IMG/VR virus record: IMGVR_UViG_3300018471_000116
DNA length: 5,168 nt
Strand: one strand, 5' to 3'
DNA from: a virus
Taxonomy: Duplodnaviria > Heunggongvirae > Uroviricota > Caudoviricetes
Part shown: in pieces, positions 15 to 5,168 of the stretch
Position numbering within the stretch: the stretch's first letter is position 1
Layout of the letters: every line of letters begins with the position of its first letter
Position numbers and translations under genes: made by a program
The notes under the pieces: generated by a model
Seen by the model: the letters and a program-made list of their open reading frames with translations, nothing else
Told to the model about the DNA's origin: nothing
The model's database searches: none

Positions 15-47
15 CCTAAATACTTACGCCATCTTTACCCTTACAAG

Positions 48-1166
48 TTGTGGAGAAAAAGCACATCTACACGAGATCTGAATGAGGCGAGAAGATTCAG
101 AAACCATCTGTTATTAGAATGGGAGGAACTAAAGCGGAAACATAATCCTGATAACCCCGAAAGGAGGTTACAAAAAGCTATTGAATCCTTACATTCAGAG
201 GCAAGGGCCAATAAAAACACGCAAAGAGCCGTAAAACGCGGTTATGCATCGCCTTCCCTATGCTTAATACGTGACGAATACGCCGAATGCTACAGAGAGC
301 GTCGTTCATACTCAACACTACAGAAATCAGCAAGGGCCGTTGAGCTATTTTTACAAAGCATTCAGAAAGATGATATTCATATTGAGAAAATAGGCAGACG
401 GCTTGTAACAGTATTCTTAGATGACCAGAAGCAACGAGGAGCAGCCGATCAATCTCGTCAAAACTGGCTTACATGCTTAGGATCGCTCTATGAATTTGCT
501 AAACGCCGTTATGACGGAATACCAGACAGTAACCCTTTTCACGGTCATAACCTCGAAGCACGTCGCACAATCGAGAGTTATCAACCGTTTACACCTGAAC
601 AAATGCAAAAGCTACTTGATGCAGCGGAGCCGGAGATCAGAAATATTATTTTAATGGGCTTGTTTTCAGGATGCAGATTAGACGAACTGGCAAGCCTGAA
701 AAAGTCAGAGGTTGTAACTGTGGAAGGAATACGCTGTTTTTATATCAGCAAGAGTAAGACTAAAGCAGGGATCAGACACGTTCCGATACATTCAAGACTA
801 TCGATTATTGTCGATGAATATTTAAATCATAATTATGGTGAATATTTGTTCCCTCACTCGAACAAAGTAAAAAGAATCGACGGCAAGAAAGGCCCGTTCT
901 ATTCTCAAGCATTCTCACGTTTACGTCGTAGCGTCTTGCCAATCGCTACAGATAGACAATGCTTTCACAGCTTGCGCGGGATGTTTATCACTTGTCTTGA
1001 TCGTGCCGGAGTGCCTGAACAGCGGATCGGAGCCATTACCGGACATACAGAGCAGAGAGCTAAAACAGAAGCCTTTCGCACCTACTCACAAGGGGCAAGC
1101 ATTCCAGAATTAGCTGAATATGTAGAATTAGTAAAATATGAATTAAATATTGATTTTAAGGCGTAA
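48..1166 (+). CDS. int: Tyrosine site-specific recombinase (phage-type integrase); start codon uncertain (TTG at 48, frame open back to the adapter junction at 15)
   Basis: 372-aa ORF. Catalytic-domain signature is readable in the translation: R210 in GCRLDEL (nt 675-677), K237/K239 in SKSKTKAG, H307-x-x-R310 in FHSLRG (nt 966-977), H333 in TGHT, and Y346 in AFRTYSQG (nt 1083-1085). Spacing closely parallels lambda Int (R212, K235, H308, R311, H333, Y342). No in-frame ATG occurs before residue 186 and no clear Shine-Dalgarno precedes the TTG, so the annotated start is tentative. Confidence 0.85.
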   Translation: MWRKSTSTRDLNEARRFRNHLLLEWEELKRKHNPDNPERRLQKAIESLHSEARANKNTQRAVKRGYASPSLCLIRDEYAECYRERRSYSTLQKSARAVELFLQSIQKDDIHIEKIGRRLVTVFLDDQKQRGAADQSRQNWLTCLGSLYEFAKRRYDGIPDSNPFHGHNLEARRTIESYQPFTPEQMQKLLDAAEPEIRNIILMGLFSGCRLDELASLKKSEVVTVEGIRCFYISKSKTKAGIRHVPIHSRLSIIVDEYLNHNYGEYLFPHSNKVKRIDGKKGPFYSQAFSRLRRSVLPIATDRQCFHSLRGMFITCLDRAGVPEQRIGAITGHTEQRAKTEAFRTYSQGASIPELAEYVELVKYELNIDFKA

Positions 1167-1174
1167 AAAATCAT

Positions 1175-1192
1175 AGGCGCTTCATTGCGCCT
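1175..1192. terminator. Hairpin between convergent genes; probable intrinsic terminator, mainly for the minus-strand operon
   Basis: Perfect inverted repeat AGGCGC (1175-1180) / GCGCCT (1187-1192) with 6-nt loop TTCATT. On the minus strand the stem is followed by AUGAUUUUUU (complement of 1165-1174). On the plus strand it is followed by the weaker TGTCCTATTTC. It lies in the 30-nt gap between the int stop (1164-1166) and the 218-aa ORF stop (1197-1199). Confidence 0.5.
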
Positions 1193-1196
1193 TGTC

Positions 1197-1853
1197 CTAT
1201 TTCACTTCTCCGTCATACGTCGGGAGGGTGTCTTTAGTGGTGCTGGCTGTTCCTGCATTGGTTGGCACTCGGCTTTTTACCTGTCCGCCTGTGCTCTTAG
1301 GTGATGCGGTCTTTACAGCAATAGCGTTAGTAGTTGCATAACTCACTAATCTTATCTGTTCGAACTGCAAATCAAACTGTAAAGCTGATTCTGTTTTATA
1401 TTCGTAGTCAATGCCTGTCAGAATCATATTATCAAACGTCTTATGCTCTGTGCTTACAATAATAGGCTGTCTGGCATTCATTATTTCATCAAGATAAGCA
1501 ATAGCCTGTGAACACCTGTTACCGTTCACCCCTGCACTTGATAGCATATCACCACGTAATGCTAATGGTGTTTCTGTAATAATGCCTGAAAGCATAAGTT
1601 TATTATTCTTGATCCTGACATTATCAGATACATCATTACCATCCTGCACAGGATACGATGTAACATCGGCAGAACGTGAAACCTTAGTTGCCGGAACAGC
1701 GTCAAAAGTAATAGCTTTATAACTGGCTATCGTTGATGCATTTTCGTTATTCAGGTTGCTACATATAATGGCAAATCCGTTATCAGATTTAACCTTGCTG
1801 TTAGATGTATTAATGTTAGATGTGCTGTTGATCTGACTTTCTTTGATAGCCAT
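1197..1853 (-). CDS. Hypothetical protein, 218 aa; candidate virion (distal tail / tail-tip type) protein by position only
   Basis: ATG start at 1853-1851 with an AAGGA Shine-Dalgarno about 12 nt upstream on the minus strand (complement of 1863-1867); TAG stop at 1199-1197. Ser/Thr/Asn-rich N- and C-termini and a central region rich in predicted beta-strand-like residues. Same strand as, and 73 nt downstream of, the 633-aa gene. No recognisable catalytic motif. Confidence 0.6.
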   Translation of the reverse strand: MAIKESQINSTSNINTSNSKVKSDNGFAIICSNLNNENASTIASYKAITFDAVPATKVSRSADVTSYPVQDGNDVSDNVRIKNNKLMLSGIITETPLALRGDMLSSAGVNGNRCSQAIAYLDEIMNARQPIIVSTEHKTFDNMILTGIDYEYKTESALQFDLQFEQIRLVSYATTNAIAVKTASPKSTGGQVKSRVPTNAGTASTTKDTLPTYDGEVK

Positions 1854-1875
1854 TTATATTAATCCTTGTGTAATG

Positions 1876-1904
1876 AGCGGAAAGCAATAAATATTGCCCC
1901 CGCT
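1876..1904 (-). other. Intergenic two-tier stem-loop just upstream of the ribosome-binding site of the 218-aa gene
   Basis: Outer stem AGCGG (1876-1880) / CCGCT (1900-1904); inner stem GCAAT (1884-1888) / ATTGC (1893-1897) with loop AAAT. On the plus strand it is followed by a T-rich run (1905-1920). On the minus strand (the transcribed one here) it is not followed by a U-tract and sits about 9 nt 5' of the SD. Confidence 0.3.
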
Positions 1905-1926
1905 TTATTATTAGTTATCGTTAAAC

Positions 1927-3828
1927 TTAGTTAACGCTACTCTGTCCTGACAACGTGCTAAGAATCAGATTCGAACTAAACTGATTGTTGTTCGCTCTGA
2001 TCTCAGTGCGGATTAAATCCTGAAAGCCGGGACCGTTAGGGATGACGTTAACAGAGATCATATCACTCGGCACCGTAACCTGTGCATTCACGTTAACAGG
2101 AGTTGCGTATTGACGTTGTAGGCTTACAGTCGGCTGATAGGCTTCTGCTTTACGTGCAACAAGGGTTGATCCGTAGCTGTTAGCATTGCCATTAATTAAA
2201 TCAGTCCACCACCCTGGAACGCCGGACTGTGTTTCCTCACCGCGCACAATACGCCCTACATCTTTCGTATCGAGTCCAGTTGCATAACGAATACCTTCAT
2301 TGATAATCGTTGATGGCGACCATTCCCCATCTGTAACAGCGTCCATAACCTTTTGTGTCTCAGGTCTGTTATCATTCTCACCACGGCTAAGATGTTTATT
2401 AATCCAGCTTGTGATTTGATTCCCGTAAGAAGTCATAGAGGTCAGTAATACAGCGCCTTGTTTAGCCAAATCCCCGAACGATGCACCAACACCATAAGCT
2501 GCATTCTGTAAGGCTTTGCTTTCTTCCGGTTTGAGTGCTGGCATGTTGGCTATGCCATCAAAGAAGCCCAAAATAGCCTGATTCGATAGTCCATCTGTCA
2601 GACGGTCAAAGGCTGTAGCTGTCTTGTTAGCTGCGCGATATTGCTCTTTCTGTGCTTCTGTCAGTAGCTGCCCGTTGTTTTCCATATCAACCATCGTTTT
2701 ACGGAACTCTTCCCCATCACGGGAAAACATCTTGAGATAATGGCTGGCATCGTCTGCTAATGGTTCGATCAGGGATATGATGGCTTCTTTAGTCATTCCT
2801 CGGCGTTCACCTTCTCTCACCACGTCTTGCAGGAGTTGCAGCGGTCGCCCCTGGTAGGAAGCTATCTTATCTTTGTTCCATGCAAAGGCATTCTGAATAT
2901 CATTTAATGATCCTTCCCCGCCTCGCCACTCTTTTTTCTTACTATCCCATTCAGCAGTTCGGCTTTGATGACCAATGCGTTCGTTTAAGTCTTTGATATT
3001 GTCAGTGGTCTTGTCCACGCTTGCACTTGATACACCGTTTGCCCTCCCCCAATTAACCATTGCAGCCACCTGGTTGGAGTCTGCGCCTACCAGATCGCTC
3101 ATCTTCTGCAATTCCATACGTTCACGGGCTTTTTCCATTCCAGCAGATACAGCCATACTTCCTAAGCCAACGGCAGCGCCGCCGATAATGCCACCAACAC
3201 CGCCCATCATTAACGCGCCACCGCCGCTAACACCTTCTTTGTGGAGCTTCTTAGAAGTAACTGGATATACACCCCCAGCGGCAGCATTACGACGCGTAGC
3301 AGCGGCTGCGGCTCGTCTTTCTAATGTGATGCGGTCACGGATCAGGGCATTCATCTTCGCTTGCGATATAGCGCCGGATTCATAGAGGCGGGTTTGTTCC
3401 TTAATGTAACGTAGAGCATCGTGATATTTCTTAATATCCATCCCTTCGCCATAGCGGGAATTGTTCTTGATGCCTTGTAACTGGCGATATGATGCAAGGC
3501 GCTTGATCTCTGCCTTTTCAGCAATTGAGGCTTGTTTAGCCTGTGCTTTAGCGAGGTTTTTAGCTTCCTGTAGCTTCTGTTTAGTGCTGGCTTTAGATGC
3601 CTGTGTCTCAGATTTAACAGCCCGCTTAACATGCTGATCATGCTGGCGCTGAATCTCTTTTCCCAGCCTCTGTAAATCTTTCTGACGTGCTGCCGCCACT
3701 TGCACAGGTTTGATCCCCTGCATCTTCTTTTGTAGCTTATCCACTTCATTCTTAGCTTTCTGTAAGCTCTTGAAATCAGTGGTAAATGTCACAACATTAC
3801 TAATTCGTGAGGCGGTAATTTCTAACAT
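1927..3828 (-). CDS. Large phage structural-type protein, 633 aa: coiled-coil N-terminal region plus Gly/Ala-rich hydrophobic segment; tape-measure-like (alternatively pilot/ejection-type) protein
   Basis: ATG at 3828-3826 with AGGGAAAC about 10 nt upstream on the minus strand; TAA stop at 1929-1927. Residues about 20-170 are K/Q/A/E-rich with heptad-like character (e.g. KLQEAKNLAKAQAKQASIAEKAEIKR). Residues 171-186 are poly-Ala/Arg. Residues about 200-231 (GGGALMMGGVGGIIGGAAVGLGSMAVSAGM, nt about 3136-3231) form a Gly-rich hydrophobic stretch typical of tape-measure and pilot proteins. The C-terminal about 390 aa looks globular. Product call is by architecture, not homology. Confidence 0.75.
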   Translation of the reverse strand: MLEITASRISNVVTFTTDFKSLQKAKNEVDKLQKKMQGIKPVQVAAARQKDLQRLGKEIQRQHDQHVKRAVKSETQASKASTKQKLQEAKNLAKAQAKQASIAEKAEIKRLASYRQLQGIKNNSRYGEGMDIKKYHDALRYIKEQTRLYESGAISQAKMNALIRDRITLERRAAAAATRRNAAAGGVYPVTSKKLHKEGVSGGGALMMGGVGGIIGGAAVGLGSMAVSAGMEKARERMELQKMSDLVGADSNQVAAMVNWGRANGVSSASVDKTTDNIKDLNERIGHQSRTAEWDSKKKEWRGGEGSLNDIQNAFAWNKDKIASYQGRPLQLLQDVVREGERRGMTKEAIISLIEPLADDASHYLKMFSRDGEEFRKTMVDMENNGQLLTEAQKEQYRAANKTATAFDRLTDGLSNQAILGFFDGIANMPALKPEESKALQNAAYGVGASFGDLAKQGAVLLTSMTSYGNQITSWINKHLSRGENDNRPETQKVMDAVTDGEWSPSTIINEGIRYATGLDTKDVGRIVRGEETQSGVPGWWTDLINGNANSYGSTLVARKAEAYQPTVSLQRQYATPVNVNAQVTVPSDMISVNVIPNGPGFQDLIRTEIRANNNQFSSNLILSTLSGQSSVN

Positions 3829-3852
3829 GTTAATTGTTTCCCTGTATTATGA

Positions 3853-3872
3853 TTATTGTTTGTTATTGTTTT
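3853..3872. repeat. Short AT-rich tandem direct repeat (TTATTGTTTG / TTATTGTTTT), with a third ATTGTTT copy at 3833-3839
   Basis: Read directly: 3853-3862 TTATTGTTTG and 3863-3872 TTATTGTTTT (9/10 identical). Spans the stop codon of the 65-aa ORF and the 5' leader of the 633-aa gene. Low complexity, so may be incidental. Confidence 0.3.
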
Positions 3873-4060
3873 TTAGAGCAATAATATTGGATTGCCTCAA
3901 AAGTGCTGCACCCAGTCTGAAACACACGCTGCCGCACATTATTTGCATCAATTGAAAGCATTCTGCATAAGGCACTGACATTGATTATTGAGTCATCGCT
4001 AATAGCTGCCAGTTCTTTTACAGACTTAAGAATTAATGCCTGTGAATTTTCTGTGTTCAT
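3863..4060 (-). CDS. Small hypothetical protein, 65 aa (possible small operon-leading protein; function unknown)
   Basis: ATG at 4060-4058, TAA stop at 3865-3863, same strand as flanking genes and exactly fills the gap upstream of the 633-aa gene (34-nt spacer). Weak purine-rich SD (GAGAGAAAACCA-ATG). No signal-peptide-like or strongly hydrophobic segment. Short length and weak RBS keep confidence low. Confidence 0.4.
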   Translation of the reverse strand: MNTENSQALILKSVKELAAISDDSIINVSALCRMLSIDANNVRQRVFQTGCSTFEAIQYYCSKKQ

Positions 4061-4211
4061 TGGTTTTCTCTCACATATATATTTTTATTTGGGTTTGTAG
4101 ACAGTAGAAAAACAAAAAGGGCAAAGAGATTCGTTACTGTATTTGCGCCTACAGGTTAGTTAATCCCTTTACCCTTATTGCCCCGATGGGGAATCGTCTA
4201 TTAACGCTTTA

Positions 4212-5136
4212 TTACGCAGCAGATCCGAAGATGATAGCTTGCGGAATGTTGTTTACTGGCAGATAAGATGTCTCAGTAACCACAGATGGGAATTGGAATT
4301 CATCCTTGATTAGATATTGGTGATGCAACACGGCATCTTGACCTAACTCAGCATGACGCACACCAACGCCGCTATGAAGCTGGTAACACTGTGCCGCTTT
4401 ATCCATTACCGGAACAATTGCGAAACCGTTCTCTCCGATGTGAGCAACAATCTCAGGAAACATTGACACATCAATAACAGTGATCCCACCAATCTGGAAA
4501 GAGTCATAGGCTGGGTTAGAATCAACCATACGGGTAAACAGGGCCGTAGCACTCGCATCGCCTGCATATTTCACCATGTCACTGATCAGCGGGTTAGATG
4601 ACAAACCATCAGCAGCAGTGCCAGCAGCAAAGATAATTACACCAGTTCGCTTTGCAGCAAGACCAGACCCCAGCTTTTCACTCTGTAAGCGCACCGCTTT
4701 ACGAATAGCAAGGAACGGGTTAACAGTAGTCGATGCAAAGTCGATAGCGGGTACCGTGGTTTTAGCCTGACCGTCGAGGAAGTCGAGATCACCTTGTCCG
4801 GCATATTCAGATTCAACTTTCAGGCCCAGCAGCGCGGTAATCAGATCCACTTCAACACGGTTTGCGTGTGAACGGTAATGAGCCTCAGAGAAATCATTAA
4901 CCGCTACCAGCATAGCATCAGAACGGTTTGGATATTGGCGGCTGTATTGTTCCAGGTCACGAGAAGTAACAGCGTTAATACTGCCGACGTGTTTCATCTG
5001 GAAAAGTTTGTTTGACCATTCCTGACGTTTAGAGGCGTTCCAGTCGCTTTGAGCGTAAGGCGAGGTTTCCCCAGCTACCTGCACAAACTGATCAATCAGG
5101 TCGGTAAGAAGAATGCTGTTTTCTGTATGATATTGC
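4212..5136 (-). CDS. Phage structural-type protein, 5'-truncated at the adapter junction (at least 308 real residues); major capsid or major tail/sheath candidate
   Basis: Uninterrupted minus-strand ORF from the contig edge to the TAA stop at 4214-4212. The first six residues of the six-frame translation (MCSSDL, 5153-5136) are encoded by adapter sequence, so the true N-terminus and start codon are missing. Composition is Ala/Gly/Ser/Thr/Val-rich with no P-loop or catalytic motif, consistent with a virion structural protein. Identity not resolvable without a homology or structure search. Confidence 0.7.
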
Positions 5137-5168
5137 AGATCGGAAGAGCACACGTCTGAACTCCAGTC
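5137..5168. other. Sequencing adapter (Illumina TruSeq indexed adapter / read-1 read-through sequence); not biological sequence
   Basis: Positions 5137-5168 read AGATCGGAAGAGCACACGTCTGAACTCCAGTC, the first 32 nt of the standard TruSeq adapter AGATCGGAAGAGCACACGTCTGAACTCCAGTCA. Confidence 0.95.

Follow-up and report, generated by a model that had tools for sequence, protein, structure and literature searches.

A lambda-type tyrosine integrase and its PICI-like island at the Escherichia coli tRNA gene glyU

The stretch of DNA analysed here (5,168 nucleotides, in the following called the window) is bounded on both sides by non-biological sequence, which was recognized by reading the letters and by pattern search and is assigned to no strand: cGCTCTTCCGATCT at positions 1–14, which we take to be a remnant of the Illumina TruSeq adapter, and AGATCGGAAGAGCACACGTCTGAACTCCAGTC at positions 5137–5168, presumably an Illumina adapter as well. 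The first of these artificial contig ends cuts a tyrosine integrase gene on the plus strand (15–1166), which is for this reason 5'-truncated; it was delimited by a frame that is open to the contig start, by the corresponding 406-aa gene of E. coli, and by matches to PF00589 and phrog_1. Retained in the window are residues 24–406 of the 406-aa protein plus the stop codon, i.e., the 3' 94% of the gene. A GC-rich hairpin, AGGCGC-TTCATT-GCGCCT, follows at 1175–1192 (no strand assigned), with T-runs that give terminator-like sites on both strands and a fold energy of -11.5 kcal/mol (z = -2.5). It is likely a bidirectional terminator between the integrase gene and a converging gene for a Dit-like tail/baseplate protein of 218 aa (1197–1853, minus strand; PF21821, E 5.2e-28), which shares 63% identity with gp103 of phage phAPEC8 (E 1e-89). 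On the same strand, positions 1927–3828 encode a tape-measure-like protein of 633 aa (phrog_16051, E 3.6e-72), whose N-terminal region is rich in Lys and Ala and is accompanied by a hydrophobic, Gly-rich segment and a C-terminal region that is conserved; over residues 197–632, the protein shares 32% identity with gp104, the tape measure of phAPEC8 (E 1e-62). The pair features the gene order of phAPEC8 gp104-gp103, and the closest phage relatives of both genes are found in virulent phAPEC8-type myophages. An ORF of 65 aa (3863–4060, minus strand), taken from the ORF list and from genome annotation, is a hypothetical protein in RefSeq genomes and matched no family in Pfam and PHROG scans; it was considered as the counterpart of phAPEC8 gp105, to which its position corresponds, and dismissed as such for having no sequence similarity. 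Finally, positions 4212–5136 (minus strand) encode an HK97-fold major capsid protein of the lambda gpE family, whose homologues at 42–49% identity carry PF03864 and whose AF2 model matches the capsid proteins of PhiTE, ICP1, Bas63 and lambda (E down to 2e-14). At its 5' end, this gene is truncated by the second contig end, and a GTG "start" at 5153 falls within adapter sequence; the full length of 343 aa was taken from complete genomes. This capsid protein is known from 26 protein clusters only, all of them enterobacterial. PADLOC defence models returned nothing meaningful for any of the window proteins.

The DNA between the adapters is E. coli chromosome. The integrase gene is identical to that of strain GE3 in 1152 of 1152 nucleotides, and the complete genomes used for mapping the att sites and the island show 99–100% identity to the window. 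Neither megablast with the complete window against 50,697 phage records nor tblastn with the capsid protein against deposited phages gave a match, and the integrase is only 22–30% identical to phage integrases. Therefore, the window does not represent a known phage, and an assignment to a deposited one was rejected.

The earlier note had called the gene product a tyrosine integrase, which the proposed HMM search verified with a PF00589 score of 48.4 bits (cutoff 27.1; E 1.2e-12), far more than chance would give, the full-length protein scoring the same. In addition, the protein matches the integrase family phrog_1 (E 5.9e-37), has 5384 representative homologues at E<=1e-3, and is already annotated in RefSeq, in identical form, as a tyrosine-type recombinase/integrase. 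As a single-sequence search of solved structures yielded marginal matches (E 0.017), a family profile was needed, and this retrieved Tn1549 Int (E 6e-31), XerA (1e-27), lambda Int (1e-22) and XerD (4e-21), placing the catalytic motifs in register. Three domains can be distinguished. The N-terminal DUF6538 domain (PF20172, 37.4 bits against a cutoff of 27; residues 8–61 of the full-length protein) survives in the window as residues 24–61 (15–128, plus strand), its first two beta-strands falling outside; the AF2 model of the complete protein places strands at 9–11, 17–22 and 35–39, followed by a helix at 45–66. It is a putative arm-type DNA-binding domain. The core-binding, SAM-like helical domain (258–509, plus strand) comprises approximately residues 71–154 of the ORF starting at position 48, corresponding to 105–188 of the full-length protein. 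There, PF02899 scored 20.4–20.8 bits, slightly below its cutoff of 22.3, the AF2 model shows helices throughout, and the profile alignment to Tn1549, XerA and lambda Int takes in the region. The catalytic domain lies at 588–1124 (plus strand), with the PF00589 match at residues 181–336 of the shorter ORF. The AF2 model as a whole reached a pLDDT of 92.3. Its best Foldseek matches were the full-length lambda Int chains 5J0N, 1Z1B and 1Z1G (E 4e-10 to 1e-8, about 400 aligned columns), and lambda Int, Tn1549 Int, XerA, Cre and IntI4 were all retrieved with a probability of 1.00. Target-normalised TM scores were 0.55–0.77 for lambda Int, Tn1549 Int, Cre and IntI4 and 0.42–0.52 for XerA, with 0.71–0.77 against the N-terminally truncated lambda chains 1Z19, 1P7D and 5J0N_E. 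The suggested structural comparison with lambda Int hence recovered the core-binding and catalytic fold with lambda chains as the top match. The P4-type domains PF13356 (Arm-DNA-bind_3) and PF22022 (Phage_int_M) are absent. Altogether, the gene product is a routine lambda-type tyrosine integrase and a standard member of a very large family.

Both att sites lie outside the window and were observed in complete genomes. In these, the 3' terminus of glyU, a tRNA-Gly gene, is present as a 22-bp repeat, and the integrase gene is situated 85 bp inward of it. This repeat and the intact tRNA bracket an island of 12.4–13.7 kb in four E. coli genomes (loci L001–L004), the repeats being perfect in every locus examined. 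The junctions match the empty, uninterrupted glyU site of K-12, in which the flanking sequence runs on across the junction. Likewise, orthologous integrases at 67–71% identity, from Klebsiella and from another type of E. coli island, have the same tRNA-Gly fragment about 95 bp upstream. Short repeated motifs surround the core: direct copies of TAGGTAACTG occur 63 bp before its start and 49 bp after its end, and three to four GTAACT sites lie within 125 bp of it, approximately 10-fold denser than elsewhere in the island, a ratio based on few copies. These arm-like sites are partly conserved in a variant of 88% identity. No excisionase or other directionality factor (Xis, AlpA, HTH_17) was detected by Pfam and PHROG scans of the small ORFs of the island, the sole match being a weak Arc-like one (E 0.002). 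Directionality factors are small and diverse, and one could be missed by such scans.

Elsewhere, the island encodes a protein resembling the replication initiator O (phrog_270, E 1e-8) as well as a serine invertase of the Hin type. An invertible segment beside the latter was looked for and rejected, there being no convincing inverted repeats and no inversions among the four loci. An Rfam scan of the whole island found the tRNA alone; two stretches of the island are free of genes, and Rfam matches none there. Terminase, portal and protease genes were not found in the island, and the idea of a complete miniature phage was rejected for this reason. Some genomes carry a further integrase, of the P4 type and with both PF13356 and PF22022, back-to-back with the one studied here across the same glyU att repeat. 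The cargo behind the conserved integrase and attP is mosaic, which points to ongoing exchange. Moreover, other lone capsid genes, combined with different cargo, accompany related glyU integrases, and integrase and attP may thus constitute a shared chassis for exchangeable modules.

The integrase gene is present in 185 of 5426 complete E. coli genomes (3.4%), spread across diverse strains, and 178 of these 185 copies are essentially full length. The claim that it marks an integrative mobile element is well founded in this distribution, in the bracketing 22-bp glyU repeat and in the empty K-12 site. The gene could nevertheless be a fossil, i.e., intact in sequence yet no longer integrating or excising an island that has become a fixed, immobile remnant. 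Such a state would agree with the failure to recognize a directionality factor, with 192 of 192 copies being chromosomal and those examined all occupying the same site, and with an island which has no terminase, portal or primase and thus cannot move by itself. Against this, the integrase shows a dN/dS of 0.07–0.08 at dS values of 0.04–0.61 and has therefore been under sustained purifying selection; besides, the 22-bp repeats have stayed perfect at every examined locus, the gene occurs in diverse strains while the K-12 site is cleanly empty, and the cargo is mosaic behind a conserved integrase and attP. A fossil is accordingly regarded as improbable. Still less credit is given to a recombinase that is not the integrase of this island and serves a neighbouring island, or acts as a Xer-like resolvase or an invertase. 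The back-to-back P4-type integrase across the shared att repeat, the serine invertase encoded in the same island and weak NCBIfam matches to XerA, XerC and XerD could be read in this way. However, in GE3 and CREC-591 the island is the sole one at glyU and the integrase its sole tyrosine recombinase, located inside the repeat. The Xer equivalog models scored far below their cutoffs (XerA 44.4 against 220 bits, XerC 38 against 335, XerD 35.6 against 330), the protein carries an extra N-terminal domain as arm-binding integrases do, and neither the inverted repeats nor the inversions of an invertase system were found. This makes a role apart from the island very unlikely.

The earlier note had further placed the gene start at position 48, which does not hold. 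The frame upstream of 48 contains no stop and continues into the adapter at 1–14, the same gene in complete E. coli genomes has 406 codons and starts 23 codons upstream of the point where the genuine sequence of the window sets in, and the Klebsiella orthologue has an ATG at the same start position; the TTG at 48 is the internal codon Leu35. That the ORF at 48–1166 is a complete native protein of 372 aa, a shorter integrase without arm-binding domain, can be practically dismissed: initiation at TTG is permitted and the frame appears in the ORF finder output, but the frame runs without upstream stop into adapter sequence, the peptide PKYLRHLYPYK encoded before 48 is identical to the full-length E. 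coli protein and lies within the DUF6538 match, and the orthologues from three genera all start approximately 34 residues farther upstream.

True residue numbers hence equal those of the shorter ORF plus 34. Translation of 48–1166 on the plus strand confirmed the presence of all residues that had been proposed for the active site, namely (codon positions on the plus strand; full-length numbering in second place) Arg-I R210/R244 (675–677), the catalytic Lys K237/K271 (756–758), K239/K273 (762–764), His-II H307/H341 (966–968), Arg-II R310/R344 (975–977), His-III H333/H367 (1044–1046) and the Tyr nucleophile Y346/Y380 (1083–1085). Conservation was assessed in 69 diverse homologues with 22–47% identity to the integrase. 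R244, R344 and Y380 were found in all 69, K271 and H367 in 68 (one homologue has W in the His-III column) and H341 in 67. While either K237 or K239 had been named as the catalytic Lys, the first is conserved in 68/69 and the second, present in 22/69, is unconserved, and only the former can be retained. The residues therefore occupy the active-site columns of the family; in the family profile, the columns R, K, H, R and H align to R212, K235, H308, R311 and H333 of lambda Int, and the Tyr column falls on the Tyr of XerA. The assignment of the nucleophile needs some care. The local PF00589 alignment ends at residue 336, short of Y346 (both in the shorter numbering), the lambda Int profile alignment ends at Q341, one residue short of Y342, and in the Tn1549 alignment the family Tyr is displaced by one column, to the C-terminal side of the position that carries the Y379F mutation in the crystal construct. 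The Tyr assignment therefore rests on its invariance and on the alignment to XerA. A positioning almost exactly as in lambda Int, as had been stated, was not found. The match in absolute numbers is coincidental because it arises from the truncated ORF, and the relative spacings, counted for lambda from the printed profile alignment, differ (integrase/lambda: R-K 27/23, K-H 70/73, H-R 3/3, R-H 23/22, H-Y 13/9). The His-to-Tyr loop of 13 residues belongs to the longest class in the family (4/69 homologues) and is the part of the catalytic domain with the lowest confidence in the AF2 model (pLDDT approximately 70). With active-site columns at least 97% conserved, the recovered fold and the low dN/dS, the earlier view of a probably functional integrase is supported, catalytic activity being predicted.

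Gram-negative phage-inducible chromosomal islands, or PICIs, are described as elements of 10–20 kb that encode an integrase and have captured late genes, a capsid gene standing alone being typical; in many of them, the target is a tRNA gene (PMC10111431). The 12.4–13.7 kb island, with its integrase, lone HK97-fold capsid gene and tail genes, resembles such a satellite in size and content, and a satellite lifestyle would be consistent with this. AlpA beside the integrase, a Bro-N zone and a primase-based replication zone were not detected in the island; a tRNA-Phe group of PICIs without primase that encodes a resolvase has been reported (Mageeney et al., 2023; PMC10111431). In the literature on glyU islands, DUF6538, Phapecoctavirus satellites and capsid-encoding satellites, no description of the island was found. 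As lone capsid genes are already known in Gram-negative PICIs along with captured late genes (PMC10111431), novelty would be confined to the tail-gene content and to the connection with a virulent helper, and the island context is the sole moderately novel aspect of the integrase. Tentatively, and with more doubt than confidence, the island might be assigned to an undescribed lineage of PICI-like satellites, or of assembly-interfering defence islands, directed against large virulent myophages of the rV5/phAPEC8 type and not against temperate lambdoid helpers. This reading draws on the tape-measure and Dit-like pair beside the integrase, on the lone gpE-family capsid gene and on the failure to find a terminase, portal, AlpA or primase; the different lone capsid genes and cargo of related glyU integrases, and the lone capsid and late genes already known from Gram-negative PICIs, speak against it or at least lend it no support.

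Overall, the locus is very probably explained by a 406-aa lambda-type integrase which inserts a PICI-like island into glyU. The integrase would carry out recombination between the attP of the island and the 3' terminus of glyU, the chromosomal gene for tRNA-Gly(CCC), exchanging strands inside the shared 22-bp block TGGAGCGGGCGAAGGGAATCGA. The predicted attP junction of the circle after excision reads …GGGGAGATTC-TGGAGCGGGCGAAGGGAATCGA-GGAAACCC…. The island would supply a replacement for the 3' end of the tRNA, so that glyU stays intact, and leave the 22-bp repeat at the opposite end, 85 bp ahead of the integrase gene. This gene lies at the island end away from the tRNA and converges on the late genes of the island. 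For arm-type sites, the N-terminal DUF6538 domain with its three-stranded sheet and helix is the candidate binder, and a directionality factor would presumably be required.

For annotation, these results mean that the window derives from the E. coli chromosome, namely from a mobile island located at glyU, that the integrase ORF is incomplete solely through a contig ending in adapter, and that the active site is correctly numbered R244/K271/H341/R344/H367/Y380. The integrase itself is of a known type and will not surprise the specialist. Its value is that of an anchor, which fixes the boundaries and the target, a 22-bp core in tRNA-Gly, of a small family of islands; their phage structural genes, a variable cargo, may merit a separate study.

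Among known systems, lambda Int is the top structural match and shares the architecture of a small N-terminal sheet-plus-helix domain followed by core-binding and catalytic domains, as well as short repeated motifs on either side of the attP core. The integrase differs from it by an identity of only about 16–18%, by a DUF6538 domain with no sequence match to the lambda arm-binding domain, by wider distances from His to Tyr (13 against 9) and from R to K (27 against 23), by a tRNA gene as target instead of the lambda attB, and by having no recognized Xis. Tn1549 Int (PDB 6EMY/6EN0), which stands for the integrases of Tn916-family conjugative transposons, is the best profile match among solved structures (E 6e-31), covers the core-binding and catalytic domains, and has the RxxE, K-hairpin, HxxR and GH motifs in register, with the Tyr column offset by one in the alignment. 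This enzyme has a loose target specificity and inserts through heteroduplex crossover regions, whereas the glyU integrase is tied to a single tRNA gene by a strict 22-bp block of identity. The P4-type island integrases (Arm-DNA-bind_3 / DUF4102 N-terminus) likewise insert genomic islands at the 3' ends of tRNA genes; they feature PF13356 and PF22022 where the present integrase has DUF6538, and the latter sits at the island end far from the tRNA. With regard to Gram-negative PICIs, the island differs by the absence of detected AlpA, Bro and primase genes, by an integrase that converges on the late genes from the downstream end instead of heading an integration zone, and by late genes that resemble those of a virulent myophage and not of a lambdoid prophage. 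Like the tRNA-Phe group, however, it combines the absence of a primase with a resolvase, and as in Gram-negative PICIs such as EcCICFT073, an integrase mobilises an island of 10–20 kb with a lone major capsid gene among its captured late genes.

The plus-strand ORF drawn at 48..1166 in the ORF listing was called a probably functional tyrosine integrase in the earlier note, and this call was right, neither of the outcomes named there as refuting it having occurred. The PF00589 profile matched with 48.4 bits (cutoff 27.1, E 1.2e-12) and the PHROG profile phrog_1 'integrase' with E 5.9e-37, values far beyond those expected by chance. The identical protein is already listed in RefSeq as a tyrosine-type recombinase/integrase, and the enzyme as such is ordinary. 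R210, K237, K239, H307, R310, H333 and Y346 all occur in the translation of 48..1166 as the note had listed them. The start at 48 is wrong, with no upstream stop and a frame running into adapter. The first bases of the 5168-base window are cGCTCTTCCGATCT and the last AGATCGGAAGAGCACACGTCTGAACTCCAGTC (sequence read, pattern located), at 1-14 and 5137-5168, both of which we take to be Illumina TruSeq adapter. Because this sequence stands at both contig ends, the ends stem from library preparation, and the genuine insert covers about 15..5136. The adapter cuts the 5' end of the integrase gene and likewise that of the capsid gene, whose listed start ('GTG MCSSDLQ…' at 5153) is translated adapter. 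A chromosomal locus of many E. coli genomes matches the window with about 99% identity, and there the integrase has 406 aa and an N-terminal DUF6538 domain (PF20172, 37.4 bits); the integrase portion of the window is identical to that of strain GE3 (1152/1152). The window encodes residues 24-406, the TTG taken as start is Leu35, and the true numbering is shifted by 34, giving R244, K271, H341, R344, H367 and Y380. The supposed positional match to lambda Int fails accordingly: since the 5' truncation shifts the numbering, the near-agreement of absolute numbers is a coincidence, and the His-to-Tyr spacing of 13 is not that of lambda.

Among 1.84 billion representative proteins, searched exhaustively, 5384 homologues were found (E<=1e-3), and conservation was assessed on 69 near-full-length ones with 22-47% identity. 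R244, R344 and Y380 are present in 69/69, K271 in 68/69, H341 in 67/69 and H367 in 68/69, with one Trp. The catalytic Lys had been left as K237 or K239; the former (K271) holds, while the latter (K273) is variable (22/69). The family profile matched Tn1549 Int (E 6e-31), P. abyssi XerA (1e-27), lambda Int (1e-22), P2-type Int (6e-22) and XerD (4e-21), and its R, K, H, R and H fall on lambda R212, K235, H308, R311 and H333 (counted along the printed profile alignment), which places the residues on the active-site columns. The lambda alignment stops at Q341, one residue short of Y342; the family Tyr aligns with that of XerA with a one-residue gap and lies one column past the site of the Y379F mutation in the Tn1549 construct. 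This uncertainty of register arises from the variable His-to-Tyr loop, the spacing ranging from 9 to 13 in the family (mode 10-11), with 13 shared by only 4/69. As the sole conserved Tyr of the region, Y380 was accepted as the nucleophile. A seventh invariant residue, absent from the list of the earlier note, is R277 (69/69; window R243, 774-776), the Arg of 'IRHVP', which lies 6 residues past the catalytic Lys and has its counterpart in the Arg of the Tn1549 Int segment 'GVRKIP'; P280 is likewise invariant.

The AlphaFold2 model built on the 69-sequence alignment (mean pLDDT 92.3, pTM 0.74) features an N-terminal three-stranded sheet with a long helix, a helical core-binding domain and a catalytic domain, in which the His-to-Tyr loop is the segment of lowest confidence (pLDDT about 70). 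The structural comparison with lambda Int proposed in the earlier note bore out the assignment, as the best Foldseek matches were full-length lambda Int chains (5J0N, 1Z1B, 1Z1G; about 400 columns), followed by Tn1549 Int, XerA, Cre and IntI4, all with probability 1.00. Two other classes were considered. A P4-type integrase was rejected because PF13356 and PF22022, present in a neighbouring integrase, are missing here, and a Xer recombinase because NCBIfam scores reached 35-44 bits against cutoffs of 220-335. The gene occurs in 185/5426 complete E. coli genomes, chromosomal every time and near-full-length in 178/185; dN/dS was 0.07-0.08 against copies at dS 0.04 and 0.61.

That the DNA belongs to an integrative mobile element was substantiated by its chromosomal context. 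Strain Combat11I9 carries TGGAGCGGGCGAAGGGAATCGA, 22 nt that repeat the 3' end of the tRNA-Gly gene glyU, at 85 bp upstream of where the integrase begins, and the intact tRNA-Gly 13.2 kb from this copy. Islands flanked by the same repeat pair measure 12,395 to 13,658 bp in GE3, CREC-591 and 97-3250, whereas in K-12 MG1655 glyU directly adjoins ygeQ without an island. This pattern is the classic signature of insertion into a tRNA gene 3' end, the element supplying the replacement end. The K-12 flank runs unbroken across the distal junction of GE3 except for a 73-bp indel; the extra sequence of GE3 (L002 14739-14811), just outside the distal att repeat, is also found in loci L009 and L010, and the difference may be a remnant of earlier integrations or reflect loss of the segment from K-12. 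In the reconstructed attP, direct copies of TAGGTAACTG flank the core, 63 bp ahead of its start and 49 bp past its end, and within 125 bp of the core the density of GTAACT-type sites exceeds that elsewhere on the island about 10-fold. These sites, conserved in part in a variant of 88% identity, are candidate arm-type sites. The same tRNA-Gly fragment stands about 95 bp upstream of orthologous integrases from Klebsiella (71% identity) and from another E. coli island type (67%), and thus the whole clade is glyU-specific. Some strains carry tandem islands at glyU (L001 3000-19846; L004 5740-14846): beyond the shared att repeat, Combat11I9 has a second island, whose integrase is of the P4 type and whose cargo comprises two ars operons, an ABC-three-component defence system and an inovirus-type Gp2 gene, and 97-3250 has a different second island with a degenerate third repeat, TGGAGCGGGCGAAGGGAGCCTA.

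Besides the integrase, the window holds four substantial minus-strand ORFs (five in total) converging on it, with a terminator-like hairpin between (1175-1192; hairpin/terminator scan), flanked by T-runs on both strands. The Dit-like gene (1197..1853, 218 aa; PF21821, E 5e-28) and the tape-measure-like gene (1927..3828, 633 aa; phrog_16051, E 4e-72) encode proteins 63% identical to gp103 (E 1e-89) and 32% identical to gp104 (E 1e-62) of the virulent myophage phAPEC8, respectively; the latter alignment, which covers 243-660 of phAPEC8 gp104, leaves out residues 1-196 of the 633-aa protein. As gp104 and gp103 are adjacent in the same order in phAPEC8-type virulent myophages of about 150 kb, tail-core genes typical of a group of lytic phages are present on a chromosomal island, pointing either to a satellite or to interference with tail assembly. 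A 65-aa ORF (3863..4060; ORF listing) is followed by the capsid-like gene (ORF listing 4212..5153; 4212-5136 without adapter; 343-aa protein). The 150-bp gap between capsid stop and 65-aa ORF start (4061-4211) features a short GC hairpin on the minus strand, CCCCATCGGGG, which may be an internal terminator or attenuator inside the late-gene block. The capsid-like protein has no Pfam match of its own, a weak PHROG match (phrog_29, E 2.8e-4) and no tblastn match among 50,697 deposited phage genomes. Its homologues at 42-49% identity have PF03864 (lambda gpE family), and the AF2 model (pLDDT 69.8) shows an HK97-fold matching the PhiTE, ICP1, Bas63, Sf14 and lambda capsids (E down to 2e-14). The family is very small, with 26 clusters among 5.8 billion proteins, all enterobacterial.

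Outside the window, the island encodes a replication-initiator O-like protein, a Hin-type invertase and small unknown ORFs; terminase, portal, protease, AlpA and primase were not detected in it. Two stretches of GE3, L002 20828-21818 (about 1.0 kb) and 24140-25655 (about 1.5 kb), are without annotated gene, ORF >66 aa or Rfam match and might contain an origin, a packaging site or unknown RNAs; at the longer one, which adjoins the Hin-type invertase, no invertible segment was found. Islands with orthologous glyU integrases (67-71%; L009 10001-20042, L006 10001-19904) differ in cargo, each with a lone capsid gene and neither with portal or terminase. Those of Klebsiella keep the gpE-type capsid gene, lack the tail genes and encode a 721-aa protein and a Phage_phiTE_211-domain protein, and the second E. 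coli type combines a different lone capsid gene (phrog_267, E 2e-69) with genes for nucleases (HNH, endonuclease VII), a DEAD helicase and AbiTii.

The cargo is a more interesting lead than the integrase and lies outside the scope of the integrase finding. A literature search found no paper on the glyU island or on any satellite of phAPEC8-type phages. Gram-negative PICIs, a type of phage satellite, are islands of 10-20 kb, and a tRNA-Phe group among them has a resolvase gene and no primase (Mageeney et al., 2023; PMC10111431). Since the glyU island fits this general picture, the lone-capsid pattern is not new. Nevertheless, the glyU island differs from PICIs by being without AlpA, Bro and primase genes, by an integrase at the downstream end that converges on the late genes, and by tail genes resembling those of virulent myophages.
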